Origin: Klebsormidium nitens
Lineage: Eukaryota; Plantae; Klebsormidiophyceae
Reading direction: 5' to 3'
Length of the DNA: 33,864 bases
Assembly (NCBI GenBank): GCA_000708835.1
Contig: DF237619.1
Span: 13,623 to 47,486, forward strand
Part shown: piece after piece, positions 1-33,864 of the stretch
Layout of the letters: each line of letters begins with the position of its first letter
Numbering within the stretch: position 1 is the first letter of the stretch
Notes under the pieces: model-generated
Databases searched by the model: none
Told to the model about the DNA's origin: nothing
The model's input: the letters and a program-made list of their open reading frames with translations, nothing else
Position numbers and translations under genes: made by a program

Positions 1-249
1 TATAAAATAAATTGATTGATTGATTGAGGTGCATTGCTGTGAATCATTGCTGGACAAAATCAGACACCTATTATCTGGATTGCTCAGAAGTCGCGGCGAA
101 ACCACAAAGATCAGACCCAGTATACTGCATGTTCCATTGGACTTGGGGCGCCGCAATACATTTTCAAATTCGGTCTTATACCAAGCTGCTTCATTGCCAA
201 CCTGGTCGCCAGCAGTGCCCATTCTCTGTAACTGGTCTTTCTTCACAAG

Positions 250-6026: not shown

Positions 6027-6372
6027 ATGCGAGAGGGTTTAGTGCTCCATATTTGAACTCTTTAGAGTTCCTTTGCATTCCAACATACCGCCACAGCCTC
6101 GAGGGGTGACCTGAGGCGGGTTGTCTGTACAGTAAGTCTCGCTGATGTAATTGTGCAGAACGCCATCACCTTCAAGATCACGGAAGACCGTTCGACATGA
6201 GATCCCCTTTGTACGATTATTGTGTATCTACAAAGGAGGTCTTGGAAGCGAAACCTGTTAGGCTGTACTGAGCGATGTTGCGATTGGACGCCCGAAAAGA
6301 TGTTAAAACAGTGAAAGCACGTTGATTTTAGAAGTTTGCTAGCCGGTACGTACAATATGTCAAAGAGGGGAA

Positions 6373-6422
6373 CCAGGTCACCTGATGTCATCTTGCCAGG
6401 TCACCTGATGCCATCATGCCAG
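6373..6422. repeat. Tandem duplication, period 23 bp, with internal palindrome CAGGTcACCTG
   Basis: ccaggtcacctgatgtcatcttg (6373) then ccaggtcacctgatgccatcatg (6396), then ccag. Confidence 0.75.
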
Positions 6423-9400: not shown

Positions 9401-9771
9401 AAATGAGGCTTGGCAGTTGAACTTGAAAGCAGGAGCTGGAGATGGCTGGAGAACAACAAATTTGCTATACCGGTACGCTGTTGTTCCGATGAAGTACCCA
9501 AACCAACTTCCGGTCTGATCCCGCCCTAAGGAGGGGAATGAAAGCGCTTGGGTACTTGATCCTCTAGGATTGAAACTAGGGTTTGGAGAGTGGTGTGTCC
9601 CCCAGCTCGCCCACCACTGCAGCGTACTGAGCTTGCTTTGTGATCTGCTTTGTAAACAGCTCGAAGTGCTTTTGGCCAACTTGCTTCTCAGGTGCCTTCA
9701 GGAGCTCTGGGACATTGAGAAGATTACGCTTTTCAAGATCAGAGGATCATTGAATATCCTGGTGTAAAGAC

Positions 9772-12700: not shown

Positions 12701-15700
12701 GAGTGATTTAGTTATCTGTTCTGCTTGTCAAGGACTGTTGTTATCATATCCAGGACGTGGACGAGGGCTGGTCAGTGTGACAAATCTTGGCCCTGAGTCT
12801 GTTACTGGCAACTGCACCTCGATCTGTCAGATTTGCTCTTGGAAGGTTGCACCTTTTTGGGTTTGAAAATTGCATCAGCACCTGGTTGGGCATCAAGTGC
12901 CGTTAAGGGGGCCATTACTGGAGACTTCAATCGATGCACTGTTGATCGCTTACTGATCAGCTATCCTTTTATGAGGTCTGTGAGCTGTCGCACGGACATG
13001 GCAAATATGGGCCAGTTGCCATTGACGTTGTGCCAGACAATACTGCGCGACTCTGAGCCTGTGATACGAGACTGCATATTAACAATGAAAGAGAAAAATT
13101 TGGTTGCAACAGAGTTGGCACTTCTTTCTTGTTTTCCAAGTGTGGCGCCACCTGAATTCTTGGTTGTGACCTACCCTGGTCATGAGTGTGAGGTGCACCA
13201 GAATCAGGTTTTTCAAGGGCAGCCTGCCTTTCCGTCGACCATGACGACTTGGACTGCTACTACTAGCCTTGTGGACGCACGCTCGTTTTCTGGGCTCTCG
13301 CCTCGGAAAAGGATCATGAAGACTGCGAGGTGTATAGTTTAGTTTCCGCTTTTTTGCTGCTTGGCTGAAGCTACCGTGCTGCATCATCCGGGTGCTTTTT
13401 AGAAAGGATGCGGTCCTCTTTACCCAAAGATCCGAGCAGCGTTTGAGACGGAACATTTTATAGTCGTGGCTCCAGTCAATCGCTTCAAATTTTGTTCCTT
13501 ATATTGGCCATGTTGATCTGACTGGCTGACTCAACGTCAATTTCGGTCGGAGTTTCTGAGCCTTCATTTCTCAACAAGTGACTAGGTTGCCTATTTGTCA
13601 AGAGACGAATCAAGATGCACTTGGCGGAAGCTAGAAATACATGGTCTAGGCAAGGATTTACTTGGGAGTCGTATTCTTTCAAGTTCCTAGTCAAGCTCAC
13701 CTGCAAGGTCCTTGAGGTCACTGCACCCCCCCCAGGCGGTCCCGTTTCTCCGCTGGCAGACTGCACCCGTGGGGCTTTTTCAGAATTGACGCATTAGGGG
13801 CCATCGTAACCAAGCAATGTTCGAAGAGTAAACTTTCTTTAATGCTGTCCATTTGCCTCCGCTGTAATTCTGGCTTTTTTGTAGCCTTTGTTGTTACTCT
13901 ACATGAGGCTGTGGCAGCACTCTGCTCCCGCCAGGATTATTGGTGCCTCTTCGTGACGGTCTCTTTCGGTGGTCGATTGTCTCAGAAAAGTCTATGCGAC
14001 TCTTGGACGTAGGGATGAACTTGCGTGGTGGCTTCTAGGTAAAGGCCATGATGACTTAAATCCTGACATACGTCATGGACATGTCGGTAGTCTCCGAAGC
14101 CTTGCAGTAACGATAGGAACGGTGCTTGTCTCAGGCTCTTGCAATACTTAAAGCAAGTACAGAGCATTGCAAATCGTCAACCAGTTAGCTGAAGTCCAAC
14201 GCTATCAACAAATTCGACTCGGGGCCAAAGCCCTTTCTGCCCAGGATACATTTGTCACCGCCAGCAGACCGCAATTTTTTTGTTCTTTGACTGCCGTTCG
14301 TCTTCTTTGTTTGGCATCAGCCCATGAAGATAGTTGCGTGGTACCTTTTGGACTGCCTTTTCTATCGAGCCTCGCTTGCAAACAACAAAAGGCGGTGTCA
14401 GAACTACCTGTGCCTCTTTTTAAGAGTCCAATCTGTGGTTTAATATCTGGAGTCCTGGTCAGGCTGTGAAGAAGGGCATTGGCAAATTTGTCAGTGGCTT
14501 CCTGCTAGCATTCTTGAGCCGCAGCACCGACTACAACGCTTGCAGACATTGTCACCTTTGCTTTGTCAGAGCAATCATTGATAAGCCCACATGTCATCAC
14601 CATGCCTTTCTTTCCGGCTTGACAGACGGTTCCTCAACTGGCAAAGATTCTCTCCTTTTGCCGTTGCGTCGTCAAGGCGAAACCCTAGATACCGCCCCTG
14701 TTCGTCCGGAAGCTCTCCTTTAAAACCATTGAGAGATTGCCGATAGCACCGTCAAATGTGACAGGTATCATCCCCCCTTTTTGCGCTTCTTGCGAACCAG
14801 AATCCCAGGCTGAAAGCTTACTCGATTGTCGCTCCTTACAGGGTTTGGTGTGCAGCTTGTGCTTCCAGCGCATTGGCAGCTACTGCTCTGATTCCCCTGC
14901 CAATGACCACATTTTTCTGTCTTCTCCCTCCCGGGCCTTTATGTTCAGCACAAGTTCCCCAAAGGAATCATGCCGAAACTTTGGCTCGAATCTTGAGCTC
15001 GCTTCTTTTCGGAGCGTGGTGCGCAGTGTGTTTTCGACTCAACGTGCAGCTACGACACTGTTTGCTTTCAAACCTCTCTCCGGCGGAGATCTTCTCCTTG
15101 CCGCCAGCCAGCACGAGGGAGCCAAAATAACTTTGTTAAATACTTGGCTGATATTTGTAGCTCATTTTATCCACTCCTCTCGCAGGGCGTGGTGCGCAGC
15201 GTGTGCTTCCACCCCAACGCGCAGCTGCTCCTGACGGCGGGCCTGGACAAGACGGTGCGCTTCTTCAACGTGGACGGCAAGAAGAACCCGCGCGTGCAGA
15301 GCTTGTTCCTGGAGGACATGCCCGTCGCGAAAGCCGGGTTTACCGGGGATGGTCGCAAGGTGGTAGCTGCGGGGCGACGGAAGTGGTTCTACGTCGTGGA
15401 TCTCGCGTCGGCGCGGGTCGAAAGGGTAAGTATTGAGATGTGGGTAGATCCCCTGTTGGATTCCTCTTTCTTGTTTCGTTCTTTTTTTGAATCGTAATCT
15501 CTTTAGTTTTGGAGGTTGCATACCGCAAGTGGTTTTGCGATATAAGACACGTCCCGGCGCGGGTTGAAAGGGTGAGTGCTCTGTTTCACCGTAGTTTCGA
15601 TTGCTGTTTTCTCTCTTTCTGGGCTTGTTTTCTTCCGGGGTGTCATTCCTGCAATTCTGGTGGCCGGACGTCGCACACAGGTTTGCGTCATGGATTTTGC

Positions 15701-17062
15701 CTCAGCGCGGGTGGCAACGTTGCATCATCAGGTTCGTAGACTTTTCCTTGTTAGTTTCTTCCTCTGGATTGTCTTCCTTTGAAGTAGTTGCCAGACGCAA
15801 CGAGTGGCCAAGTCATGGCTGTTGACGGGTCAAATCGGTGAAGCAGGCAAATGTATACCCTCCCACTCTGTCGCGAAGTCAGATACCACTTCAGCTCTTC
15901 TGTACTCCTTGACCTGGACAAGTGCATTTGTAATTTTGGACCAGGATGTGTTCAAGGAGCCTGTTAGGTCTTCGCAGTGACTGTTCCCAATCCGCTCGCG
16001 AATCCCAGAAGCTTGATAAGAACGATATAGAGTTGCTCTGAGCGGGGAATACTTGCAATACCCTGCTTTCAACGGGGCCCCTTCCTGGTTGAGAAAGGCA
16101 CCTATTCCGAGAACAAGGGTTGCGGAAACTCGTTGGCCCCAGCAAAATTTGGGGTCTTATCAGGAAAGGCGTCAGGTACCTATTCTCCGAGTCAGCTTCA
16201 AAGGACTTTCAGGAATCCTATCTCGACAACGTGCACGGAGCAGCCTTGGTGGACGGAGAGCTTCCAACATCGTATTTGGTGCCTTCTCTGCCTTCTCCTT
16301 ACTTTGTTCCGGTTGGACCTCGCTTCTGACACCCAGCTTCTCCTCCTCCATCAGATTGGCGGCATCGTTGGGCGTGAAGAGAAGAGCCTCGAAAGCTTTG
16401 CGCTCTCGCCCCTCGGCGACCAGGCCGCGTTTCTCGGAAACGAAGGCCACGTCAGTCTGGTTTCCCTCCACTCCAAGCAATGGATCGGCACGCTCAAAAT
16501 GAACGGCTCCGCTCGCGCGGCGGCGTACGCCCCCGATGGGAATACCCTGCTGACGTCTGGAGGAGACGGAGAGATCTACCACTGGGACGTGCGCACCCGG
16601 CGGTGCATGTACCGCACTCGCGACGAGGGCTGTGTGAAAAGCTCCGCGTTAGATGTGTCATCGGACGGCCGGTATTTCGCCACGGGGTCGGACAGCGGGG
16701 TGGTTAACGTCTATAACCGAGCGCGGTTAGGGGTGGACGATGAACCCGTGAACGAGCCACGTGGGTTGTTCTCCACGAGCCCATCGCCGTTGAAAACGGT
16801 CATGAACCTGACGACAGTAGCGGACACGGTCAGGTTCAATCCGGACGGGCAGATTCTGGCGATTGCATCGCGGATGAAGAAAGACTCGCTGCGGTTGGTG
16901 CACCTGCCGAGCGGGACCGTGTTTCAGAATTGGCCCACGGCGCGGTCGCCGTTGCAGTTTGTGCACTCGTTGGACTTCAGCCCGGGGGGCGGGTTCATGG
17001 CGGTCGGGAATGCGAAAGGGAAGGTACTACTGTACAGATTGCATCATTACGAGCACGCATAG
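9772..17062 (+). CDS. UTP18: U3 snoRNA-associated protein 18 homolog (WD40, SSU processome)
   Basis: Exons 9772-10023, 10888-11184, 11950-12030, 15186-15425, 16355-17062, all phase 0 with GT/AG ends; 1578 bp, 525 aa. Motifs: LEKELFG, PAWVDDEDEEVTVNIARVNRLRKLR, RMRDANQEEP, SVCFHPNAQLLLTAGLDK, GTLKMNG, KDSLRLVHLPSGTVFQNWP, GKVLLYRLHHY. Confidence 0.95.
11395..11463. repeat. Perfect two-copy 33-bp tandem repeat with internal hairpin (intronic)
   Basis: aactcaagaaaagctttgggttttcttgaattg twice (11395-11427, 11428-11460) plus aac. Each unit contains the stem tcaagaaaa/ttttcttga. Confidence 0.9.
15013..15715 (+). repeat. Degenerate partial copies of UTP18 exon 4 in both flanking introns
   Basis: About 15013-15130 echoes the exon 5' half (SVVRSVF...LLLAASQHEGAKITLLN vs GVVRSVCF...LLLTAGLDKTVRFFN). 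About 15509-15577 (YRKWFCDIRHVPARVER plus gtgagt donor) and about 15655-15715 (AGRRTQVCVMDFASARVA) echo the 3' half AGRRKWFYVVDLASARVER. Confidence 0.7.
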
Positions 17063-18074
17063 TCAATGAGCGGGAAAGTTTCATGGAAGATCGGGCCAGC
17101 GGGTAGACGAACAGGCCTAAATGATTTCATAGGTCAAACTAGGGCCAATGCTACCATTTAGCTTGACATTGATCAAGTCGATCAAAGTAGCGTGTATGAA
17201 TCAACTTGACACAAGATTCTAGAGCATGTTCTTGATGAATATCGTGGCTGTGGATCTAGCTGTTTCGTTCATTAGTACGTCATCAACTTTGCTTGTCACA
17301 TTGCAGTCTATATGTAAGTTACTTGGCCGATATGGGCTTTGCTAATATCCCATCGTATGGCTGGACATGCTTGGACCCGAACAATGGCGGCCAGATGGGA
17401 TCGTGTTCTGGCCGATATGAGCCTATGCTTCATGCTTATATCAACTGGCAAAGTTGCAGAAGATGATTGATTGAATCGCGTGTGACCGTCTCAGTTTGGT
17501 GGGGCGTTTGTCGGAAAATCATGTACGATCAAAGCGACTGCACATGTAGACTTTTTAACTTGGTCAAGCAACCATGCATTTGCTCGATCGGCGCACTGAC
17601 ACCTAGGCACTGATGGCCCTCCGACAGGCCTTTCAATCCTAGTGAATCCAAATCATTATCCTAATGTATCCGGCTGGTCCTTTGGCATACAGAATTGCCG
17701 AAGTTTAAGCTGAGCTTGACCTCAATCTGATGTACCTGCCACTATCACAATTTTAGGTACTTACTGATTGATAACGTAGTTCACTGAGAATTTCGATACC
17801 CACCTGGCAAGGTAGACGAATTACTTTGTCCAGTGCATCCAACCATCCAACCATCCAACCAATTTTGCAGGAGGCGAAGGGTACTAGATCCTAAGTATCG
17901 GCCGTGCTCGGCCTACCGTAAGTCTGATAAGGGATGCAAAGTAAGCTTGGTGCCACAGAACACCTCGGCATCTCATGCAAGTTCTAAATGACGGCCAGAA
18001 CCGCAACGCGTTCCATATATAGGGCCACCCAGCTACAAGGTGTCGCTCAATCTCCGCGAAAGACGGCCGCATGA

Positions 18075-21000: not shown

Positions 21001-22811
21001 TCGGCTCCTGCCACGACTGCCCGCCCTGCATCCTAGCATCCTTCTTCCGTTCTCGTGCCTCCTTCCGAGACGTCTCTCATCTGCCTTCCGAGCCCTGTCT
21101 TCTTCTTTCTCTCGCTCTTGTCCGGCCCTCAGAAAACAAACGTCACTAGCTTACTACGAGAAACTTGCACTGAAATCAATGCAATGCAAGGTCGAGTATC
21201 TCACAGCGGGAGCACGAGCGGGAAGCCGACTTTACATGGCCTTGAAAAGTTAGGGGGAAGTATCACAAAACTTCCTATGTTGGTTCATGTTCTGCTGCAG
21301 GAGAACACTTGGGATTCAACGACGAAGAAAGTTGAGTATGAGGTGCGCATTGTGCCAATCAAGAGAGTGGATAGACCCTGTCGTCTTCCATTCCAAGGAA
21401 CATTCTCCTCATCGGCAACGAAGCTTCCCATAGTGCAGATACAGGAAATGAAAAGCTGCACATATAGTACATGTAGCAAAAACTCGTTTTATGAAAAACA
21501 GCAAAGAAAGCAGCCACTACCGTCGCAATGAAGAAAGCCGGCAAAACACCGTCCCCAATAAAAAGTAAACTAAAGAAGATACAAACACGGAATTTGAAAT
21601 GCATTGAAATGGACTCGGAAGAAAATGCCGCTTCTGATTTCGGCCAGGGAAGATGTCTCTACAGTTTGTATTAGGACTCGTGAAGAGTTGGCAAGAATGG
21701 TTACAGACAATGGTTGTTCAACAAGTTTGTGACAGTGGACCAAGTAATTGAACTATCATGATTTGAAAATTAATTAGTTGATTATTACTAACTGTGTCAC
21801 AGTGATGATAAGACCCGCTGATGAGCCACTATCAAAGACAAGGTATTCGATGAATGATACAAGGGTAAATTAGCTGATACAAATGTTGCAAGTGTCTAGA
21901 ATGTACTCAATTAGCTTTCCTGTGTCTTCTGTACTGATCATATTGTACTTTCGTATCCAGCAGCAATAACACCAGGATCCTCAAAGACTTGGTACCTTTT
22001 CTTGGGACCCCCTTGAGATTTTAACAGGGTCAGCTCCCCCCTTCAGAGTTGCACCCTCCCAGGTTGCACAGCTGCTTGTGGAGAGTAAGGGACGTACTGG
22101 ACGTAATGGTAATAGCAATCAAGGGTAAGGATTGATCGATTTGAGGAGATGTTGGTAATCCTCTGCCTGAACCCATGCTACAGCCCCTCTTTCTGACTCT
22201 TCCTCTGCAAACCAGTATAGATAGATTCCTGTGGTTCCCTTAAGATAACCCTGTGGGATTGCACTGAAGCTATGTATTTCTCCGGTGTCGCTAATGGCAA
22301 CGTTGTCTGATACACTCCTGATGGCGGTCTCTCGAGCCGCATATCCATCCTGAGAGAGCGAAAGATTTGCGAACAGGGGGATGGTGAAATCCATAGGGCT
22401 ATTAAAAGTCCTCATATAGGTGGCGTAAGGAAGGCTCGCGAACACATTACCATGGAGCTTCAAACTTTGCCAGGCGGTAGTTCTCGCAAACTCACGAAGC
22501 CTCTTGGAGTTCTCTGTTTCTAAGACCTCAAGCGGAAGAGAGCCATCCTCCCCAAGCTGAGGGACAAGATAAGCCAGTTGGTTGCGGGATTCCGACATAC
22601 CGTACTTACGAAAGAAAGTCCGTCGTGAGAAACGAAAAGGGATGCATGAGCAGGGAGGAAGACTGTGGATGGAACCTTGTGTCTGCATGCCATTTCTGTT
22701 TGCGTGCCTGTCAGCGCGAAAATTCGCGACGTAAGGCATTTTGGAAAGCGCGCGGGTGACCGATTCTGTTAAGGTCTCTGACCGCTTGCCCCCGCTACCC
22801 AACGTCCTCAT
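18075..22811 (-). CDS. Unidentified multi-exon gene, probably a single-pass membrane protein; exon structure and both ends only partly resolved
   Basis: Splice-consistent minus-strand exons: 18874-18734 (IGYTFDQEGVIYLAEINTLQYTTLLSQWAGVWVIVPSLLMLAFVAVK, hydrophobic helix), 20029-19925, 20305 to about 20128, about 20640-20411 (GTGAGT donor at 20410). There is also a long open frame at about 22811-22119. No family recognised. Confidence 0.45.
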
Positions 22812-23039
22812 GAGCCACCCATGGCTCCTACGGGACAAAAAAAAACTGATCGATTGAGGTTTGATTGACCCGGTTCCTCGAACCGCCGTATTGGCCAGAA
22901 CGCCATTCGGCGAAATCTCGGTCGGGGGGACACGTGGCACGCTAGGGTGGCTCCTTTTTAGGCCAACAATCCCCAAATCTCCGGACTGATATAACCAGGT
23001 GCCGCGCAAATATTTATGTCACTTTAGATTTGATGGGTA

Positions 23040-23339
23040 CCGTACCGCCACACTCAATTCGCAGACCCCCGTTGCGAAAAAGTTATTTTCGAAGATTTTT
23101 CCATTTCGCACTGGGATATTGACAATTATTTAAGCAATTGCCAGTTTTTAGCACTTGCTGGTTAACAGCGGTAAACCCACGCTAACAGAGCTTGTTTACC
23201 AGTATAACCGCCCTATTTTCGCAACCCATAAGTATTTTGAGCGTATACGTTTTCGCACCAGCTCTTGTACAAGTAATATTTTTTTCCGCATGAACTTCAC
23301 AATAATTATTTACAGTGCGAATTGCGTGTAGCGGTACGG
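23040..23339. mobile_element. Tc1/mariner-type (Stowaway-like) MITE, 300 bp, near the host/virus-like junction
   Basis: TIR CCGTACCGCCACACTCAATTCGCA (23040-23063) matches the reverse complement of 23316-23339 at 22/24. TA on both sides (23038-39, 23340-41). AT-rich interior with repeated TTTCGCA/TGCGAA motifs. Confidence 0.85.
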
Positions 23340-23718
23340 TAGGCTCGCCGCAGGCTTAGGAACCAGTGCAGCAAACAGGTCGCCGCGAAAACAACACTAA
23401 TACTTTCTAGCAAAACTCTCGCAGTTGACGCAGTATGTTTTAGTGCCGCCGGCGGTCGAGAAATTGGGCGAACTTGTCCGAGTGAAACCAAATAGACTAC
23501 AACTAGCCGAGTGTTGTCCAATCGACCCAACTACCTCGGATCTCATCAGACCTTTCTGAAAGTCCTGGGTGGCGGTTGTACGTTGCCTCAGTGAAGACAT
23601 GTGGCATCCGATTCCCATGCCTTTTCGAGGCACAGGTGAAAAACACCGGTGTTAGCACCTTTTCATAGCATACTTTCATTCCTCCAATTCACCCAGACAC
23701 CCATGTAATTCTCTCTAC

Positions 23719-24018
23719 ATGAGAAATTTTGGAAGGATCCATCTTTTGTCAGAGATCGATCGATCGCCGCACATCTCAGACCTTTCGGAAGGAAGTGGGT
23801 GTCTGGGTGACGCGGTTATGAGCGCCATGGACGCCATGTACACTGCCTCTATGAACACTACGTGGTTGATAAAGTTTCTTTTTCGCGCTCATCTCAAGAA
23901 GATCGGCGGTGGGATCCTCATGCAAAGTTTAGCTCGTCTTCTGGAAGAGGTCGAACGTGTGTATCGATCGAAAAGATCTTCCGAGAATGGTAACAAAAGC
24001 GAACGAACATGCCGGTGA
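23719..24018 (+). CDS. Small hypothetical protein (virus-like region)
   Basis: 99-aa ATG-started ORF with helical, protein-like composition (TWLIKFLFRAHLKKIGGGILMQSLARLLEEVERVY); no motif recognised. Confidence 0.4.
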   Translation: MRNFGRIHLLSEIDRSPHISDLSEGSGCLGDAVMSAMDAMYTASMNTTWLIKFLFRAHLKKIGGGILMQSLARLLEEVERVYRSKRSSENGNKSERTCR

Positions 24019-24067
24019 CCACACGTTCCAGTACGACGAAGCATTGCGGGCGGCGGCATCCCCGAGG

Positions 24068-25407
24068 CTACCGGCGAGGAGAGCGCAAGCGATGTATTTT
24101 CTGACGATACGCGCGGTGTGAGACATTAGACCGGCGTGGGAGGGGCAGAGCTTCGCGCATGAGTGCAATCATGTACGTGATGATTGCCGGTCCGCATGAT
24201 ATAGAGTCCGTTTGTCCCGGCACATCTGTTCCGAAAACGTGCTGTACTGGCCCCTGAATGACATGCGCGTCCCTAAGAATCCGCTCGACGTTCATGAGCT
24301 CATCTGGCATGGTCTTCATCAACGGATCTTAACTGTTGAGGCGGCTGTTGAGCACGTCATAAGCGACGAGCACCCAGTGGTAGTTTGCGAGATTGATGGA
24401 CATGAACACGTACCGCACCCCTCGCATGTTCGGCTGCGAAACCAATTCTGCGATGCTCCGAAAGTTGTAGGGGGCTAGTTTCCTGGTCCTCGTCCGGTCG
24501 TCGTTGCCGTCCTTCCACACGCTCTCATGGTTGCGATTCAGGAGGGGGCCGATCTGCCCGTGAGTCGCCATCGTATACACGATGCTTGGGTATGCGATGC
24601 AGTCGTCCTTGTTGTTAATTAGCTTGCACATGCCGTCCACGATCGCATCACTGATGATCTCGCCGTTGTGCAAGGTTTGTAGATCGTTGAATTCGACTGG
24701 AACTCCATTCGGATAAACACCGACCGTGATCTGCGGAGGGACGTCCCCTGGATCATCCAGTGTCTCCACGAATGTCCGCGCCTGCTCGTAAACCCGGTTG
24801 TCGAAACCCGTCAGAGAGAAGGGAAGCGGTCTACTCGGGTCCGAGGTCCCTTTCTTCCTCATTTGTAATCGTTTTCGTACGCCGGGAGCCCTCTTGAACG
24901 CGTACATATCCACTGGAGGGCTGATCTTTTTCCGTCGTGTTCTGGTGGCCATCGGTGGTGGCCTTTTTTCTGAAGTCGCGCCGTGCTTGTTTGGGATCAC
25001 TCGGTTCGGACTTTTAGTCGGCAGGCCTCCCGTTTTCACCGCGACTCCAATTGAATGTTTTATTCGACCCGCCTCCTGTCTTCAGCCCGACTTGATCCTG
25101 CGTGGCATTGCCGCTGGTGCGATTCGCACTCCCCTTCCGCTTCTTCCTCTTTGTTCCTGTGGGAGGACGCTTGCGTGTAACTGATGGTGCACCCTGGCGT
25201 GCCAGCGCCCAATCGCACATCGACAGCGTACTTTCTCCAAAAATGGGACGCCCTGTGGAATTGAGCTGCCGGTATAAGGACGCCCGCTCTCTGATCGCTC
25301 TCGGGATCGCCGCATCCTCTAAGGCATAAGCCAAAAACTCGATCCAGCCGTGGGCCTTTGGCACATTGGCCCTGAGCTGACACTCTGAAACACATATTCT
25401 CCAGCAT
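24068..25407 (-). pseudogene. Ulp1/SENP-like (C48) cysteine protease pseudogene
   Basis: Motifs LQTLHNGEIISDAIVD, SINLANYHWVLVAYD (catalytic His), NS*DPL (Asp; TAA at 24329-24331 replaces the expected aromatic residue), QTDSISCG (Gln and Cys). ORFs 24329-25039 and 24068-24322 share one frame. The N-terminal part (25014-25415) is in other frames. Confidence 0.8.
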
Positions 25408-25473
25408 CTCGACAATGATACGCCCCTCGAGTCAGTGTTGCAGGTACACGGGGCATTTCTTTATACGTTATTA

Positions 25474-25640
25474 CCGTTTTCGCCCAAACTGTCGCCCGAA
25501 CCGGGCGCTATTCGAGCGAATAAACGATAACAATACCGGATTAGGCCCATACAAGTACGGACTGGTACCGGCTATCTGCGAACCGCCGGGTTATGAAGCC
25601 CGGTATTCGCGAACAATCCTCATATACTGGCCGACCGGCA
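25474..25640 (-). ncRNA. Putative Fanzor omegaRNA/fRNA scaffold
   Basis: Lies between the Fanzor stop and the element 3' end, where TnpB/Fanzor guide RNAs are encoded. Hairpins: GCGAA-ccg-CCGGG-ttatgaag-CCCGG-ta-TTCGC (25578-25610), CGCCCG-aac-CGGGCG (25493-25507), TATTCG-ag-CGAATA (25509-25522). The 5' boundary is a guess. Confidence 0.55.
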
Positions 25641-27455
25641 AAACTCTGCCAGCCTGGCACGGCCTTCGAGCCGCAACCTGAGCAGCCTCAGGATGTTGCG
25701 GGCAGCGTTCACGTCGCGGATCACCGTCATGCCATGACAGCCACTGTTTCTGCAGTGGAGCACACTGTGAACTTTGACGGTCTTCACCGCCCCATCCTTG
25801 CACCGCTTCTCCGAATACTGGTTGTGCAGCTGCGTCTTGCAGTCGAAGTGCAGCTTGCTGGTCCTGAACTTCGTCCATCGAGACCACCCTGCAATGCTTG
25901 CGAAGCTCCCGCTCCAGTCGCTTCACTGGCCCGGACGGAGATCCCTTGATGATGCCTCCGGAGTCCTTGTTCGACCAGTCTCCGAAGCCCACCACCGTCT
26001 TGCACCCTACTCGCCTGGTGATAGCTTTGCAGAGCGAATGAAGCTTCTTCTGAGCCGAGATATACCGTTTGAACTTGAGCCCCCTAAAGCCCTGCCTCAT
26101 GTGGTAGACGAGGAGCATGTCGAGCCTGGGCAGCATATAGTGCACGTAAGCTAGGAATTTGGTGCTCTCCGAGGTCTTCTTGGTGGGCATGTTGCGGATG
26201 GCCTCGAGCACCTCCGGGCTCTTATCGTACCACCGCTTGATCTTGGCGTTGCTGTACTTGTATTTGGCGTCACCATAGAATTCTCGAGTTGAGCACTTCA
26301 GTTTCTCTCCTTCCTCGTTGACCATGACGAAGAGGTCTCGCCTGCCCGGGTCTAGGCCCCATAGCTCCTCTTCGCCCGTAAGCTCGGGGAGCGTTGCTTC
26401 TCCTGAAGCTTGCTTGGGTTTGGGCTTCCTCAGTAAGATGCACACGGCCTTTCCGTCCGTGATTATCTCTCCTGCGAATTTGCGTTGCATGTCTCGAACT
26501 TTGCGATGTCGAAGAGGTCCCGCCAGTAGTCGTCAGCCACCTTCCTGAACTCCGCTCCCGAGGCTGGAAGCTTGACCCCTCCCCTCTTGAGAAGCCCATA
26601 GAGTCCGTTGGTGCACATCTTGAGGTGATTGCACTCGATGCCCCTCTTCGTGGGCAGGAGGCTGAAGAGCCTCAGCTGCTTGCCTTTCTTCAGTTCTTCT
26701 TCTGTCAGGGGGTGATGCAACTCTATGTAGCGCAGGAACATGTATTGCATCGGCATGAGTATGTGAGGGGTGGAGTCTGCCCTGCCAGTAGTGGCTTTCG
26801 GAAGTATGGCTCGGTACCTCAAAACCAGTGGGTCGTTGCCTTCGTACTCATCGGCGAACATGTCCCGCATCTTGGCATAGCATGAAGGGCCATCGAGCGA
26901 GTACGTGTGCTTCAGGTAGCGCTTGAAGCGCTTGTAGAAGTTCGTGGCGATGGAGTTCTTGATGCACGTGGCCATCTGAAGGCTCGCATTCTGGTACCAG
27001 CCGGAAGAGAGATGCTTGCAGTCCGGAGGCCGATAGCCTGCAAGGCGTGATGCCAGGTAGAGCTCTACGGTCTCCCTGAGGTAGAGGTCTTTGACGGAGC
27101 TCTTCTGCCTACCAGCCATGCTGACGGCAGAGAGGCAGTTGTAGAAGAAAGGCTGATCCAGAGGTGGAACTTCGCAACCCAACTCACACATCCGTAGTAT
27201 ATGCAGGTTAGCAAGAATGTAGGCTTCACAGATGGCCTTATTCACTTCCTTGAGCACACTCTCTAGAGGAAGGGCCCTGGCAGCCTCCTTGCAGAAGCTG
27301 TTTAGGCTGGTCTTGACCACGGTGCATTCGGTCTCTTTGTTCCTCAGGGCCCGGAGCTTGACGTCCTCTCGGGTCCTAGGCTCTTTGAAGAGCTTGCTCA
27401 CGTAGGCCAGGCATTCGTGGTGGAGAGCGACGTCGGGGGGTTTCTTGGGTGGCAT
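25620..27455 (-). pseudogene. Fanzor: Fanzor (eukaryotic TnpB-like RuvC RNA-guided nuclease, Fanzor1-like), about 611 aa when repaired, with two frameshifts
   Basis: RuvC-I LWGLDPGRRDLF; VVGFGDWS; RuvC-II VSMDE[FRTSKLH]; Zn-binding HFDC...CRNSGC; RuvC-III RDVNAARNI; stop TGA at 25620-25622. A -1 shift lies near 26484 (FETCN/RKFAGEIITDG) and a +1 shift near 25870 (GAC GA[A]G TTC). Confidence 0.9.
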
Positions 27456-27539
27456 CAGACCACCCCTATGAGGCTCCTTAGGAAATTAGTTCTTGGAAAT
27501 TTTACGCACGGCCCAGGTTATGGTAAACGAGCCGAGCGC

Positions 27540-28736
27540 TTATAATATCGGGCTGTCGTATACAGTACTCAAGCGGGTAAATATATACGACAATCGTATG
27601 AAATAGGTCCAACCGGGCGGTTTCGCGCGACACTTTCGACGAAAACGGTAATAACCGATACTTGCAATTGATTCGTACTCGAAGCAGAATTCTTCCTCGT
27701 CGTTGAGCTCTCTGATCCTATCCTTTGGGTAGCCGACGATATGCACATATACTCCTGCAGTGTTCTCTGCACTCCTGCAGTCCCTGAAGAGGCGTTTTAG
27801 AATGTCTTTGAGGAGTCCATAGCGTCTCTCGGCCGGGTTGAAGCGCACGAAGTGAAGGGGGAGCCGCACGAGGTCCTTGATCTTGCCCATGCGGTCCACC
27901 TCGCACGAGACGTTGTAGTAGCGGTGATGATCCTCATCGACTTCTAGGACGACTGCATGTGTGTCGAAGATGAACGCGTAATCAGGGCGTTTGATACACG
28001 AAACGTCCCTGGTAGACATCTCGCGGGCACACGGGAGTGTCTCGTCCGAGTAAGACCACGGCCAGCCCTGCTTGCGAAGCCATCCAGTGGTGAAAGTCTC
28101 CCATCGCTTGAGAGACGTTCCCGACCGGCATGAGTAACAAGCTCTGCCCTTGTAGCGAACGGATACTTCTGAGCATACACAACACCTGGCCCCTCCGCCA
28201 TGCTTGATGCAGTGAGTGCCATGTGCCGCCTGGCCGCACCCCTCCGTCCGGCACAGCCGTCCACCTCCGTGCCCGGTGCAGAAGTTCCCAGGTCTCCGAG
28301 CCGTCTTGATGCATTCTTCTCTTTGACACTTCTTTCCCCCTCCGTGTCGGATGCAGTGGTCGCTTTTCCCATTACCATATGCTGCAGTTGTGCACCCGAA
28401 CGTCTGGCACTTCTTCCCTCCCCCATGAGTGGTGCAGTGTTTGCTCGGTTTTCTAGCCGGTTTGTTGCAGCCCTCTGTCTGGCATCGAGATCCCCCACCA
28501 TGTCGGGTGCAATGATTTGTAGCACCCTCCGCTGAAGTCTTACATCCTTGAGTCTGACGCCTTCTTCCACCACCATGTGTGAGACAATGCTTGTTAGGAC
28601 CAGGCGCCGAATGAGGACACCCCACACTCTTACACCGATACCCTCCACCGTGGGTGATGCAGTGTCTGCCCCCTTTCCCCTGTGCTATCCGATTGCACCC
28701 ATCTACAGCACAGATACGCCGGGGCTTACGTGCCAT
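27540..28736 (-). CDS. Protein with seven C-x4-C...C-x2-HGGG zinc-binding repeats (WRKY19-like repeat type) and a C-terminal PD-(D/E)XK-type endonuclease domain
   Basis: Seven HGGG repeats, then CCVC...CYSC, then RPDYAFIFDTHAVVLEVDEDHHRYYNVSCEVDRM...FVRFNP, a nuclease signature seen in large DNA virus proteins. The last 36 aa are read from the transposon end; the native end is inferred at about 27649. Confidence 0.8.
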   Translation of the reverse strand: MARKPRRICAVDGCNRIAQGKGGRHCITHGGGYRCKSVGCPHSAPGPNKHCLTHGGGRRRQTQGCKTSAEGATNHCTRHGGGSRCQTEGCNKPARKPSKHCTTHGGGKKCQTFGCTTAAYGNGKSDHCIRHGGGKKCQREECIKTARRPGNFCTGHGGGRLCRTEGCGQAAHGTHCIKHGGGARCCVCSEVSVRYKGRACYSCRSGTSLKRWETFTTGWLRKQGWPWSYSDETLPCAREMSTRDVSCIKRPDYAFIFDTHAVVLEVDEDHHRYYNVSCEVDRMGKIKDLVRLPLHFVRFNPAERRYGLLKDILKRLFRDCRSAENTAGVYVHIVGYPKDRIRELNDEEEFCFEYESIASIGYYRFRRKCRAKPPGWTYFIRLSYIFTRLSTVYDSPIL

Positions 28737-28834
28737 AGTTACTCGTAGAACAACGCACGAGTTCCGAGAGTTTCCCTATATCAACGCAGTTCAAACTCTC
28801 TGAAGGTATCGCCGTCATAAGAGGAACTGCGAGC

Positions 28835-29322
28835 TCACCACGCTCTCCTGACTCGGGCCATCCCACTTTTCCACGCTTCGTAGCGCAGGCGGTTCACGAG
28901 CGTTCGTTCTCCGGGGAGAACCCACTTCAAGTACGTCGCCAGCATCTTTCCATCTGCGTTGTAGTTCTGGATGTACCCATGCGTCAGGTGGTCTATGGTG
29001 CGTGCGAAGATCTCCGGCCCCGAGTATCTGGCCGGGTCGAAGCTCCTGACGGCGTCCCGGATGGCGAACGGAAGCAGGAGACTCATCCCAACGTCTATGC
29101 AAGTAGGCTTATCGTTCTTGACGTCGTACAAGATGTTATTCGCGTGGGAGTCTCCGTGAACGAATCCTAGCGACCACAGGGAGACGAAAGTCTTCTCCAC
29201 GGCGACGTACTGCGTGGCGGTCAGTCCGTTCTGCCTGACGGCGATCGCGTGCAAGGTGTCACCGGGTGCCCTCGTCATGACCTGTATGCTGATAGCCATT
29301 CCTCCGCCAAAGAGTATGCCGG
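28835..29322 (-). CDS. Ser/Thr protein kinase, C-terminal part (5' end in assembly gap)
   Basis: Catalytic loop GFVHGDSHANNILYD and activation-segment start PTCIDVG. Confidence 0.8.
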
Positions 29323-30209
29323 NNNNNNNNNNNNNNNNNNNNNNNNNNNNNNNNNNNNNNNNNNNNNNNNNNNNNNNNNNNNNNNNNNNNNNNNNNNNNN
29401 NNNNNNNNNNNNNNNNNNNNNNNNNNNNNNNNNNNNNNNNNNNNNNNNNNNNNNNNNNNNNNNNNNNNNNNNNNNNNNNNNNNNNNNNNNNNNNNNNNNN
29501 NNNNNNNNNNNNNNNNNNNNNNNNNNNNNNNNNNNNNNNNNNNNNNNNNNNNNNNNNNNNNNNNNNNNNNNNNNNNNNNNNNNNNNNNNNNNNNNNNNNN
29601 NNNNNNNNNNNNNNNNNNNNNNNNNNNNNNNNNNNNNNNNNNNNNNNNNNNNNNNNNNNNNNNNNNNNNNNNNNNNNNNNNNNNNNNNNNNNNNNNNNNN
29701 NNNNNNNNNNNNNNNNNNNNNNNNNNNNNNNNNNNNNNNNNNNNNNNNNNNNNNNNNNNNNNNNNNNNNNNNNNNNNNNNNNNNNNNNNNNNNNNNNNNN
29801 NNNNNNNNNNNNNNNNNNNNNNNNNNNNNNNNNNNNNNNNNNNNNNNNNNNNNNNNNNNNNNNNNNNNNNNNNNNNNNNNNNNNNNNNNNNNNNNNNNNN
29901 NNNNNNNNNNNNNNNNNNNNNNNNNNNNNNNNNNNNNNNNNNNNNNNNNNNNNNNNNNNNNNNNNNNNNNNNNNNNNNNNNNNNNNNNNNNNNNNNNNNN
30001 NNNNNNNNNNNNNNNNNNNNNNNNNNNNNNNNNNNNNNNNNNNNNNNNNNNNNNNNNNNNNNNNNNNNNNNNNNNNNNNNNNNNNNNNNNNNNNNNNNNN
30101 NNNNNNNNNNNNNNNNNNNNNNNNNNNNNNNNNNNNNNNNNNNNNNNNNNNNNNNNNNNNNNNNNNNNNNNNNNNNNNNNNNNNNNNNNNNNNNNNNNNN
30201 NNNNNNNNN
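29323..30209. other. Assembly gap (887 N)
   Basis: Run of N. Confidence 1.
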
Positions 30210-30333
30210 TTGGGAACGAGTTCACTCCGGCGCTGAGGACCTTCCCAGAATCGTTCACGATCAAACACCCGACTTTCGTTTGCGGGTCCTTACTCTTCTG
30301 CTGCGCGAGCCTCTTCGCTTGCTCCATCGTCAT
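30210..30333 (-). CDS. dCMP deaminase, N-terminal fragment (rest in gap)
   Basis: MTMEQAKRLAQQKSKDPQTKVGCLIVNDSGKVLSAGVNSFP matches the SxDPxTKVGxxIV...GxNxFP N-terminus of deoxycytidylate deaminases. Confidence 0.85.
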
Positions 30334-30359
30334 GACAGCACCGAGACACCTAACCAGCC

Positions 30360-31061
30360 CTAAACCGCATCTTCGGCGGGCCCTTCCGGCCCAAACAGAC
30401 GCCAGGCACCGTACGCGCACGCCAACCCCGTCAGCCCGAAGAACGCGTACGTCGTGTACTTTGCTGCCGCCACGGGTTCTTTCGTTCTCTTCGCGGTCTT
30501 CTCGAAGCTGACCACCGCTCTTGGTGCAGGGGGTATCGGCTCGTACTTGGCCGGTGGAGGGGGGTCCGTGGGCAAGCGCAACCTCTTCCCCAGCGTCTTG
30601 AACTCGAAGACGAGCGAGTGGTCCGCGCCACCGGTATCGTATAGTGCCCCCGCGTCGTCCAGCAAGATGACGCTCAGCCTAGATATAGAGACGGGGTCGC
30701 AGAGGTTGTCCCCTATCTCGGTGATCGCGGGCCTGTAATACTTGACCTTTCCGAGCGGTGAGTCCATCGGTAAGCGTGCCAATATCGACCGGCCTTGCGT
30801 CTCGTTCTCGCTGAAGGCCTCGTCTCTGTACACGGCCGTCTGACAGGAGGGCTTTGGCGCCTCGTCCACCGCGACGTCCAGGTAGAGCGTCTCGGCCGTG
30901 TTTGGTATTATAGCAGATATGAGGCGCAGGGAGACGCAATTGTGTATCGAGTACGGAAGGCGTATGCTGTAAGAGTTAGAAGAAGGGTACGTCGCGAGGT
31001 TCCTGCTCGAGCTATTCAAGCAGACGTGGAATCGGAAGAAGCAAGGGACGCTCTGATCCAT
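30360..31061 (-). CDS. NCLDV-type conserved protein, possible single jelly-roll (penton/minor-capsid-like) domain, Pro-rich linker and C-terminal transmembrane helix
   Basis: CLNSSSRNLATYPSSNSYSIRLPYSIHNCVSLRLISAIIP at the start and LSVILLDDAGALYDTGGADHSLVFEF later resemble beta-rich virion proteins of large algal viruses. Hydrophobic tail YAFFGLTGLACAYGAW. Confidence 0.55.
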   Translation of the reverse strand: MDQSVPCFFRFHVCLNSSSRNLATYPSSNSYSIRLPYSIHNCVSLRLISAIIPNTAETLYLDVAVDEAPKPSCQTAVYRDEAFSENETQGRSILARLPMDSPLGKVKYYRPAITEIGDNLCDPVSISRLSVILLDDAGALYDTGGADHSLVFEFKTLGKRLRLPTDPPPPAKYEPIPPAPRAVVSFEKTAKRTKEPVAAAKYTTYAFFGLTGLACAYGAWRLFGPEGPAEDAV

Positions 31062-31103
31062 GAGGACCGCATAAGTTCACGCAGGAGAATTCTCGCGTGA
31101 GAG

Positions 31104-31400
31104 CTACGCATACTGCGCCCTGCCCCACGACTTCTTCTTGAGATGAGTACACGCCTTCATCAGATCCTGATCCACCGTGTCTTTGCTCTCCATCAACTTT
31201 GCAAATTCTGCCTCTAGGACCTCCGTCGAGACGTCTCCGTCTCGACGCTGCAGTGGGCACACATCCAGGAGGATCTCGAGCAACAGGGCGAACGTCTGCG
31301 TAGGATCGTTCAGCATGAAGATAAGAGCCTTTCCCTCGTGCGAGCCCAGCTTGACGAATTGCCTCCCCCTCTTCCCAAAGGGATAATCGTATACTTCCAT
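31104..31400 (-). CDS. Hypothetical protein
   Basis: 98-aa ATG-started ORF packed between neighbours, protein-like composition; no motif. Confidence 0.55.
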   Translation of the reverse strand: MEVYDYPFGKRGRQFVKLGSHEGKALIFMLNDPTQTFALLLEILLDVCPLQRRDGDVSTEVLEAEFAKLMESKDTVDQDLMKACTHLKKKSWGRAQYA

Positions 31401-31482
31401 GACTACACGTACTCCGTATATTTGTCGGGGGTGCCAGAACGCGGCAGCGAGGCCAAGTACATTTGCATTGAGGTCTCATAGC

Positions 31483-31926
31483 ATGGACAAGATCTCATCC
31501 GACCAACTCACGTGGGTGCTGTCCAAGGCAAGATCCTACGCGCTCGCCGTGTGTTCGTTCAGGGAACCGAAAGACGTCATGATCACGCTGGACACGTGGG
31601 GCTGGGGGCTCCTCCCGCGTAACAAAGCATGGTTGTGCGAGATACCAAGCGAGCACGTGTGTTCCATGCCAGTGAAGGGTGAGTGGAGATGCTACGTGCA
31701 CGAAGGAGCATTCAACTACTACAGGGGCGATATCGCCAAGGCTGCACGTTATACATTGTACGTACACGCAACTAAGAACCACGGCGCCTTCTGTGTGCTC
31801 AGAGATAATGAAGACCGGCCCTTGAAGAGACAAACGTTGCACTTTTTGGACATCACGAACGCCGACGAGCTGAAAACGAGAATGGGAGCTCTGCCACCAC
31901 TCAACGACACGATAGCGTTGGTTTGA
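31483..31926 (+). CDS. Hypothetical protein
   Basis: ORF 31399-31926. The ATG at 31483 (MDKISSDQ) is preferred because the ATG at 31399 overlaps the ATG of the divergent ORF. No motif. Confidence 0.55.
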   Translation: MDKISSDQLTWVLSKARSYALAVCSFREPKDVMITLDTWGWGLLPRNKAWLCEIPSEHVCSMPVKGEWRCYVHEGAFNYYRGDIAKAARYTLYVHATKNHGAFCVLRDNEDRPLKRQTLHFLDITNADELKTRMGALPPLNDTIALV

Positions 31927-31934
31927 ACGCACTC

Positions 31935-32861
31935 TCAGACGTCTCTCGACATGTCCAGCAAGATGTCATCTACCGACTTACACCATTCCTTTTCTTCTTC
32001 AGGCTCGTTGAATGTCTCCCAAGCCCGCAATGACACCTGCCCCTTCTCCCTGCTGTTGCACGATAGCTTATGCTCCTTCCAGTCGCTAACCGAGCATTTC
32101 TTGGAGCAGTACGCCCTACCCTTGCAACGACTACAGACATGCAGTCTCTGCCACTCCGGGCCCGCCCTCCCTTCCGGCCTGGTCGCGAAGCAAAAAGCGC
32201 ACATCAGTTTGACGTCGACCGCCACGTCGATGTGCACCCTGGTGATCGGCCGGTCGTAGTTGCTCGTATCGAAGAAGACGCTCCCCGTGTTCAGGAGGTT
32301 GAGCATGTTCCTCGCTCCCTTTCGAAAGTTCCGAGACTCCTCTCCGGTAGAGCGGATCCTCGGTCTGTCCAAGAGCCGCATGTAGTGGACCAGGGAAGTC
32401 GAAGCATCAGGGGCACCCATCACCTTCAATGTATCTTCCAAGGTCGAGAGGTACTTCAGACTACGGAGAAGTTTGAGCACCATGAAAGCTATGTCGGTGA
32501 TGTACTCTCCCTGCCACCACTCCAGCCTCTTCGGGCCGCATGTCCCGTCGTCGTTGAGCTCGAGAAACCAGGTCGGTATGTCGTGGAGCAGCAGGTGGTG
32601 ATTGCTGGCCAACAGGCTCGTCAGAGACTTGATGTCGCCGTCCGTCAGCTGCCTTTTCATGGCGTTGTGGTTCAACTCCTCGCTCGCCTTCTTGACCATC
32701 TCGCAAACCCTGTGCTTACTCTGCAGAGACATGTCGCTAGGAGCATGCTTCTTGACGGCCTTGATAGCCACACACAGAGCCCTCCTCCCCTGCTGCGCAT
32801 TCACCAGATCATGGACGGCTATCTCTGCTCTATCAAGGGCCTTTTCGAAAGAGGGCGCCAT
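31935..32861 (-). CDS. MYND zinc-finger protein
   Basis: C-terminal CAFC...CSRCKGRAYCSKKCSVSDWKEHKLSC fits zf-MYND; 308-aa intronless ORF. Confidence 0.85.
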   Translation of the reverse strand: MAPSFEKALDRAEIAVHDLVNAQQGRRALCVAIKAVKKHAPSDMSLQSKHRVCEMVKKASEELNHNAMKRQLTDGDIKSLTSLLASNHHLLLHDIPTWFLELNDDGTCGPKRLEWWQGEYITDIAFMVLKLLRSLKYLSTLEDTLKVMGAPDASTSLVHYMRLLDRPRIRSTGEESRNFRKGARNMLNLLNTGSVFFDTSNYDRPITRVHIDVAVDVKLMCAFCFATRPEGRAGPEWQRLHVCSRCKGRAYCSKKCSVSDWKEHKLSCNSREKGQVSLRAWETFNEPEEEKEWCKSVDDILLDMSRDV

Positions 32862-32919
32862 CTTCCACCGCGAGTCTGAAAAGAATGTGTTGCCTTCTCA
32901 GTGATTTTATATGTGTGAA

Positions 32920-32966
32920 AATGGCGTCCGAGAGCTCGCCCCATTGAATGGTGTCCGAGAGCTCGC
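32920..32966. repeat. 20-bp direct repeat, period 27, in a divergent intergenic region
   Basis: aatggcgtccgagagctcgc (32920) and aatggtgtccgagagctcgc (32947), one mismatch. Confidence 0.8.
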
Positions 32967-33088
32967 GTAAGCTACTAGCGCACGTGCGAATGCCGTCCGA
33001 AACACGCATGTCGGACGCCAGTCTCGATATGAGGAAATTTCAGCGTCGATATAGGGCCGTCGACTCTCCGTAACCGACGTCAGGCACC

Positions 33089-33864
33089 ATGGAGCGTACC
33101 GAGCGTGCACCGACCTCGCCCATCGAGTCCGTCGACGCGGACGTGCTGCTGGAACTGCTCGAGAGACATTCGGACATGAGGGCCTCTTCCGTCGCTTCCC
33201 TGGCATGCACCTCGAGGAGCTTCAGAGACGCCGCTGGAAGGGCTTGGCCGTTGATGATGGCAGCATACGAACGAAGGTGTGACGAAACGTCCAGAGCGAG
33301 GCCTTCCATAGACCTGGGCCGATGCGTCGATCCACTGGCGTGCGAGGAAGACTGCGAGTATGAGGCGGACACCACGCCCTCGGGAAAACCATACGTGAGC
33401 TTCTCCGTCCGGAATCTCATGACGGAGGCGGACAAAGAAGCCGCGTTGATGCCCGTGTCAACCGCCAGGAAGACATTCTTCCTAGCGACAGAGGATTTGA
33501 GGTCTCTACGAGCATACAAAGACGTGCACGCGAGGAAGTTCTTCCGCTTCCGCGACGTCATCGAGGCGACGATGCTACGCTTCGGGCGGAGAGAGGCCAT
33601 GAAGAAGATGCTGGCGTACGCGAGGAAGCGAGACAGGGCTCAGGATGCTCGAGCTTCGAGGTGGCGGGAAGTGGAGGAGATCTCACGCTCCACCGTCCAA
33701 GAGAGCGATTGGCCGTGCTGTCACGACCTCCTGGAGATAGCGGGGGACTACCATGGAGCTGGCCAGAACCCTACTTCCTGATGCCTAACGAGAAGGGAAT
33801 CGTGCAGCACCTGCACGTGGGTTACTGCCTGACGGGAGACAGGCGTTTCGTCCAGGACGCGATC
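33089..33864 (+). pseudogene. F-box-like plus XPA C-terminal-like protein, apparently frameshifted near 33700, running past the window end
   Basis: F-box-like N-terminus IESVDADVLLELLERH...ASLACTSRSFRDAA. XPA_C-like VSTARKTFFLATEDLRSL...FFRFRDVIEATMLRFG. After about 33700 another frame stays open to the end (ERLAVLSRPPGDSGGLPWSWPEPYFLMPNEKGIVQHLHVGYCL). Confidence 0.55.

Follow-up and report, generated by a model that had tools for sequence, protein, structure and literature searches.

How does a gene for an RNA-guided nuclease come to stand alone between inverted repeats, with no transposase of its own, next to genes that look viral? The question is raised by a locus in the streptophyte Klebsormidium nitens, on a stretch of 33,864 nucleotides (the window) that spans positions 13,623 to 47,486 of the forward strand of contig DF237619.1 (assembly GCA_000708835.1). 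The locus is very probably a decayed copy, lacking a transposase, of a Fanzor1 cut-and-paste transposon. A related IS630/Tc1/mariner transposase is likely to have placed it in a TTAA site that borders a giant-virus-like gene block. The element has terminal inverted repeats (TIRs) and a TA duplication in TTAA that is evident from the conservation of its flanks, it occurs in many copies with differing flanks, and it encodes a Fanzor1 fold that is interrupted by two frameshifts.

An earlier interpretation made from the letters of the window (the sequence-only reading) had described TIR arms matching at 23 of 27 positions with TA on each side at 25474-27648. These arms are present and the pair ranks first among the 163 inverted-repeat pairs of the window; each of the two ends, however, lies 3 bp short, as other copies follow the window for six bases past both of them. 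Among the matches listed from eight runs, at least 14 contigs from five runs (X1, X6, X7, X8 and X11; four studies) leave the window at 25468, at least 10 contigs from three runs (X1, X5 and X8; three studies) leave it at 27654, and none diverges at 25474 or 27648. One X9 contig departs at 27649, differs at 27650-27651 and regains TAA at 27652-27654. The element therefore extends from 25471 to 27651 with the duplicated TA inside TTAA (Table 1), and the corrected TIR arms match at 26 of 30 positions, the first 12 of which are identical. The simplest reading of these letters is that the TIRs would start with TTACCG, that TA is duplicated and that TTAA is the target. A TIR scan of relatives covered 24 loci, 12 of which have strong TIRs (score of at least 24); these are flanked by a 5' TTA in 12/12 and by a 3' TAA in 11/12. 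The 12 loci without a strong TIR, several of them truncated by contig ends and one (L031) with a weak TIR, were left out of this flank count, and several of the TIR-bounded loci belong to the same families, so that they do not represent 12 independent lineages. PIF/Harbinger elements make a direct 3-bp TWA duplication. A PIF/Harbinger or piggyBac element, with a target-site duplication (TSD) of 3 or 4 bp, was considered and rejected, the flanks being GTTA and TAAC with only TA directly repeated (the piggyBac duplication is TTAA; PMC13565253).

On the evidence of the modelled structure of an intact sibling the encoded protein is a Fanzor1 and not a Fanzor2 or TnpB. The open reading frame (ORF) of about 611 amino acids described by the sequence-only reading exists as 611 codons on the minus strand, but it is not a single ORF: the codons lie in three frames, with frameshifts near 26484 and 25870. 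Over all three frames 575/611 residues are shared with P0001, an intact protein of K. nitens. All three RuvC motifs and the zinc site reported earlier are found in the window (GLDPG at 26358, MDE at 25878, RDVNA at 25718 and HxxC...CxxxxC), and D369, E529, D581 and the three zinc cysteines are invariant in 45/45 aligned homologs, the first zinc ligand being H in 38 and C in seven of them. The RuvC-II glutamate E529 sits six residues ahead of the zinc finger (H536), which is the rearranged position of about six residues before the finger that is described as a Fanzor trait (PMC13565253). The spacing agrees with the Fanzor motif D-X(125,275)-[TS][TS]-X-X-C4 zinc finger-X(5,50)-RD (Bao and Jurka 2013, PMC3627910), but the first ligand departs from the C4 finger in being mostly H rather than C. 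Among PDB sequences SpuFz1 is the sole match of P0001 at E<=1 (E 7.6e-11). The structure model of P0001 (pLDDT 86) finds Fanzor1 chains in all top seven places (SpuFz1, PpFz1 and GtFz1; TM 0.62-0.68, E<=2e-20), and the TM score falls to <=0.34 for Cas12f, TnpB and Fanzor2, with 0.23 to ApmFz2 and TnpB. When the model is compared with a viral structure library, the top places go to Fanzor-like proteins from giant viruses and from other large DNA viruses.

The family is well represented, with 44 related proteins longer than piece 1 of the broken gene and eight K. nitens gene models (counted over the 44 relatives, their clusters and P0066). The K. nitens gene model KFL_006700060 includes piece 1 and stops at the same frameshift. 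Two substitutions fall at conserved columns, F273I (F in 45/45 homologs) and N579I beside the catalytic D (N or D in 45/45). Because of these changes and the two frameshifts, the letters of the window copy indicate that it is most likely dead and gives no full-length protein. Its repaired product had been put forward as a candidate new programmable nuclease, a proposal that has lost its ground: a K. nitens Fanzor1, KnFNuc, is already characterised, and since intact K. nitens siblings are present in GenBank no repair is needed. One relative, P0010, is a 51%-identical Fanzor1 that is annotated as a transposase in a Thermoplasmata metagenome-assembled genome; it lies on a 3.3-kb contig that is likely a misbinned viral or eukaryotic one.

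The trailer downstream of the gene is structured, as had been noted before: its predicted fold has a z of -4.48, none of 200 shuffles (0/200) folds equally well, and the trailer tile is the lowest of 42 tiles across 22000-29200 (-4.81, next -2.7). In the predicted fold the final stem takes in the end of the TIR together with the duplicated TA and the A beyond it, and a change at 25531 that is carried by most other copies would convert a G-U pair of this stem to A-U. This terminal pairing is also predicted for the relative L043, unlike L031, in which the predicted terminal stem stops at the first base of the TA. In Fanzor1 systems the 5' TSD is described as part of the target-adjacent motif (TAM) and the 3' TSD as part of the RNA scaffold (PMC13565253), and the pairing of the duplicated TA in the predicted scaffold agrees with this rule. 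The 5' flank of the window copy, TTA, equals the TAM measured for KnFNuc, and the exact ends with TA in TTAA would account for that published TAM.

The Fanzor is packaged without a transposase, as the sequence-only reading had it, in that a search of the window with the DDE portion of a sister transposase gives no match. The further suggestion of a non-autonomous mariner-type Fanzor1 element that is likely mobilised in trans is borne out by the Fanzor1 fold and by the occurrence of DDE_3 in a sister gene model and in viral relatives. The K. nitens gene model P0056 consists of DDE_3 (E 4.5e-18) joined to a sister Fanzor and provides a candidate cognate transposase for the element. Among the IMG/VR relatives, 4/4 tested ORFs inside TIRs are DDE_3 with a helix-turn-helix, and five loci of 2.05-2.27 kb (L001, L034, L035, L041 and L056) have no transposase match inside. 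Searches with alignment A1 gave 30 and 79 loci of relatives; piece 1 and the TIR pattern found no match in IMG/VR, and P0001 none in the metagenomes. Five giant-virus Fanzor-transposase elements (L010, L011, L012, L016 and L019) carry extra ORFs of 127-373 amino acids between their TIRs, like the composite PGv-1. Public gene models splice adjacent intronless ORFs: P0066 (26463-29299) unites a kinase, the zinc-repeat gene upstream of the element and Fanzor piece 1, and the siblings P0047, P0051 and P0056 are likewise spliced, including Fanzor with ThyX and DDE_3 with Fanzor. Such fused gene models are probably annotation artefacts.

Further copies, some of them much reduced, are apparent in the runs. 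The summed depth in X1 is 13-14 on the flanks versus 89-207 over the element, which gives no copy number and fits a multi-copy family. Single-contig joints connect 25628 to 27606 (skipping 1,977 bases) and 25759 to 27616 (skipping 1,856) in X1, and 25497 to 27627 (skipping 2,129) in X8. With sides of only 28-49 bases and one contig each, the letters of these joints suggest mini-copies that lack the ORF and recall the ghost loci of Spu-1; the RNA region is retained in two of them. An X5 contig, from another study, reaches from the left flank to within the 3' TIR (25190-25497) with 25 differences in about 308 bases, so that strains may have this insertion in common. Among the differences in X5 there is an excess of G>A (219) and C>T (95), the pattern expected of methylation-driven decay.

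The claim that the element lies inside viral DNA is supported on one side only, from 27654 onwards, and the insertion may mark the border of a viral block. An exchange of Fanzors between host and virus, which the sequence-only reading raised as a possibility, is not demonstrated, as no copy could be placed in host DNA. The gene that it enters, immediately upstream, would end at about the place where its paralogs do: five of these stop 5-10 residues past FC[YF]E and the window gene stops eight past it. The C-terminal domain of this gene is conserved, five relatives standing at 64-76% across the domain, and one paralog is annotated as 'hypothetical virus protein'. Long ORFs cover 94% of 27654-33864 (the N run counted as covered) versus 11% of 1-17100, and the ORFs of 27654-33864 include a dCMP deaminase fragment, a kinase-like ORF, a MYND protein and a DUF5901-like gene. 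The latter is 100% identical to K. nitens KFL_006700070 across 86% of its length, and its three best Atlas clusters are 99-100% viral, commonest Nucleocytoviricota, with scores of 0.95-0.96; this Atlas recognition is below the usual threshold and thus constitutes moderate evidence. The 44 representatives of the DUF5901-like protein carry no informative names, and core markers (capsid, PolB and packaging ATPase) were absent from 23 scanned ORFs or pieces of the window, beyond which the block extends. Comparison of ten flank proteins with the fetched loci of relatives gave just two short matches. The dCMP deaminase-like gene (29275-30333) is broken by an assembly gap of 887 N (29323-30209), the sole N run of the window. 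Four core markers of nucleocytoplasmic large DNA viruses are listed for K. flaccidum in PMC5294986, and PMC11244446 cites Klebsormidium for giant-virus endogenisations.

Table 1. Coordinates and strand of the features discussed, in window positions
Feature	Position	Strand	Remarks
Whole element, corrected	25471..27651	-	2,181 bp; other copies depart at 25468 and 27654
5' (left-end) TIR, 30 bp	27622..27651	-	26/30 versus other arm
3' (right-end) TIR, 30 bp	25471..25500	-	also 3' arm of predicted RNA hairpin
5' flank TTA (conserved T and duplicated TA), predicted TAM	27652..27654	-	sequence; KnFNuc TAM; flanks of relatives
3' flank TAA (duplicated TA and conserved A)	25468..25470	-	predicted to pair inside RNA scaffold
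Leader, 196 bp	27456..27651	-	
Fanzor1 piece 1, residues 1-324	26484..27455	-	305/324 identical to P0001
Fanzor1 piece 2, residues 325-529, RuvC-I DPG and RuvC-II E, after first frameshift	25870..26484	-	196/205 identical to P0001
Fanzor1 piece 3, residues 530-611, zinc site, RuvC-III D, TGA stop, after second frameshift	25620..25868	-	74/82 identical to P0001; PF07282 E 0.0024, under cut-off
Predicted omega-RNA scaffold, 149-bp trailer and flank bases	25468..25625	-	z -4.48 and -5.26; trailer without match in Rfam
Predicted guide from flanking DNA	25448..25468	-	inferred from known Fanzor1; candidate first bases 25468 and 25467
Upstream gene, WRKY19-type zinc repeats (PF24906) and C-terminal domain without Pfam match	27654..28736	-	element in its would-be TAA stop codon
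DUF5901-like gene, marker of giant-virus-like block, outside element	30360..31061	-	PF19254 E 6.6e-6

It is proposed that elements of this kind would be moved in trans by a DDE_3 (IS630/Tc1/mariner) transposase and that in intact copies a transcript would continue past the right end. Its scaffold would form from the trailer, the TIR and the duplicated TA, with the guide supplied by the flanking bases that follow, and the protein would recognise TTA together with a guide match, which is precisely the site emptied by exact excision or present on an element-free sister genome. A cut at the empty site followed by repair from a filled copy would then restore the element (restorative homing). The trailer of the window copy may still supply guide RNA to intact siblings. 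A bolder version, to which little credence is given, holds that the K. nitens family is confined to viruses, that its TTAA preference would steer it into viral TAA stop codons where it does little harm, and that mini-copies without the ORF would feed guides to intact siblings. If true, this would offer a native streptophyte system in which homing driven by Fanzor could be tested between endogenous virus genomes and incoming ones, and a family confined to viral DNA would be a handle on what Fanzors do in native genomes.

Several points weigh against the reading of a virus-associated element inserted by a related transposase. No empty site occurs among the joints of the eight runs, so that the TSD is deduced from the conserved flanks. 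P0056 is a gene model, and a match of its ends to these TIRs is putative. That KnFNuc belongs to exactly this family is considered likely rather than established. For eukaryotic systems PMC13565253 describes Fanzors as shown to cut and, in its listing, reserves empty-site restoration for TnpB and IscB. Two alignments of flank proteins found no relative in IMG/VR, and the left-flank ORF at 24329-24952, which is Ulp1/peptidase C48-like, has mostly streptophyte look-alikes in the Atlas (0.87-0.90, leads only). This ORF and the spliced host genes that also lie in the window would suit a host transposon which jumped beside or into an old viral insert, rather than an element borne by a virus. Such an origin appears rather unlikely given that relatives of the same design are located in giant-virus contigs, that every K. 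nitens sibling gene model seen is on a short contig (2.8-47 kb), and that one sibling is annotated as fused to a gene for ThyX, which is a giant-virus gene. The counterparts in Chlamydomonas reinhardtii are moreover termed virus-specific (10.1101/2024.09.03.611062).

The decay and the ends of the element can also be read differently. Both frameshifts are single-base length differences in two-letter runs, and at the first break the read tables do not display the letters of the window copy itself, as might be expected if the frameshifts were assembly errors in an intact, active nuclease gene. This is improbable, as F273I and N579I are also present and X1 at 25720 retains a depth of 13, equal to that of the flanks, with the letter of the window; X1 may be the source sample and its support at 25720 is then not independent. 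The ends given by the sequence-only reading (CCG...CGG, 2,175 bp) would be right if the element inserted exclusively at a strict 10-bp palindrome centred on TA, which likewise explains the divergence at 25468 and 27654 and likewise restores the stop codon of the upstream gene. It is nonetheless very improbable: relatives keep only TTA before the element and TAA after it, the weak TIR of L031 falls into register when both arms begin at TTA after TA, L043 ends in the identical GGTAA-TA-A, and the X9 contig retains its TAA despite the altered bases next to it. A decayed copy that ends at 25471 and 27651 within TTAA is thus preferred.

Other repeats occur elsewhere in the window. A 304-bp element at 23038-23341 has 26-nt arms (92%) that start and end with TA and resembles a separate mariner-type miniature inverted-repeat transposable element (MITE). 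An inverted-repeat unit of about 194 bp at 3671-3864 has TAA directly repeated on both sides and resembles a PIF/Harbinger-type MITE. At 11395-11463 a 33-nt near-palindrome is present in exact tandem duplication.

The type of element is already known, publications having described Fanzor-only elements with mariner TIRs from viruses and from endogenous giant viruses, and the present copy adds little; its useful products are the exact ends, the candidate cognate transposase and the signs of ghost-like mini-copies. The closest system is KnFNuc itself, which has been shown to cleave DNA in an RNA-guided and TAM-dependent manner and to edit human cells at up to 2% (Jiang et al. 2023, PMC10530073). 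It shares with the window family the species, an intronless Fanzor1 gene and the presence of several copies (five in the paper, eight gene models here), its RNA derives from the 3' region next to the right end, as predicted for the window element, and its measured TAM TTA equals the 5' flank; unlike KnFNuc, the window copy is frameshifted. Two rows of Data S1 of PMC10530073, Fanzor50_0626 and _1426, which carry no organism names, are about 80% alike by eye. This paper alone was found in the literature on Fanzor in Klebsormidium, and no paper was found on the ends of the family, a search that did not cover the supplement of PMC10530073; the main text of PMC10711439 does not mention Klebsormidium.

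More distant systems repeat the same design. The Spu-1 locus of SpuFz1 is likewise about 2.1 kb long with one ORF, 30-nt inverted repeats, no transposase and ghost derivatives without the ORF (Saito et al. 2023, PMC10432273), and SpuFz1 shares its fold with P0001 at 17-18% identity in the structural alignment. Spu-1 differs in its TAM CATA, its fungal host and the lack of a reported transposase, whereas K. nitens has the DDE_3 candidate. In Bao and Jurka 2013 (PMC3627910), PUl-4 is a Fanzor1-only element with mariner TIRs and TA TSDs, as in the window element, PGv-1 combines Fanzor1 with a mariner transposase in a virus, and ESv-1 is a TA-flanked Fanzor in EsV-1; these three come from other hosts and are likened to the window element by description only. 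Fanzor families A-C of an endogenous giant virus of C. reinhardtii likewise comprise Fanzor1 with an IS630-Tc1-mariner transposase as well as Fanzor-only and empty derivatives, and the study describing them already argues for the sharing of Fanzors between host and virus (10.1101/2024.09.03.611062). They differ from the K. nitens family in that they belong to a chlorophyte host and an active virus with copies that are >99% identical, whereas the streptophyte copies are 80-95% alike and decaying.

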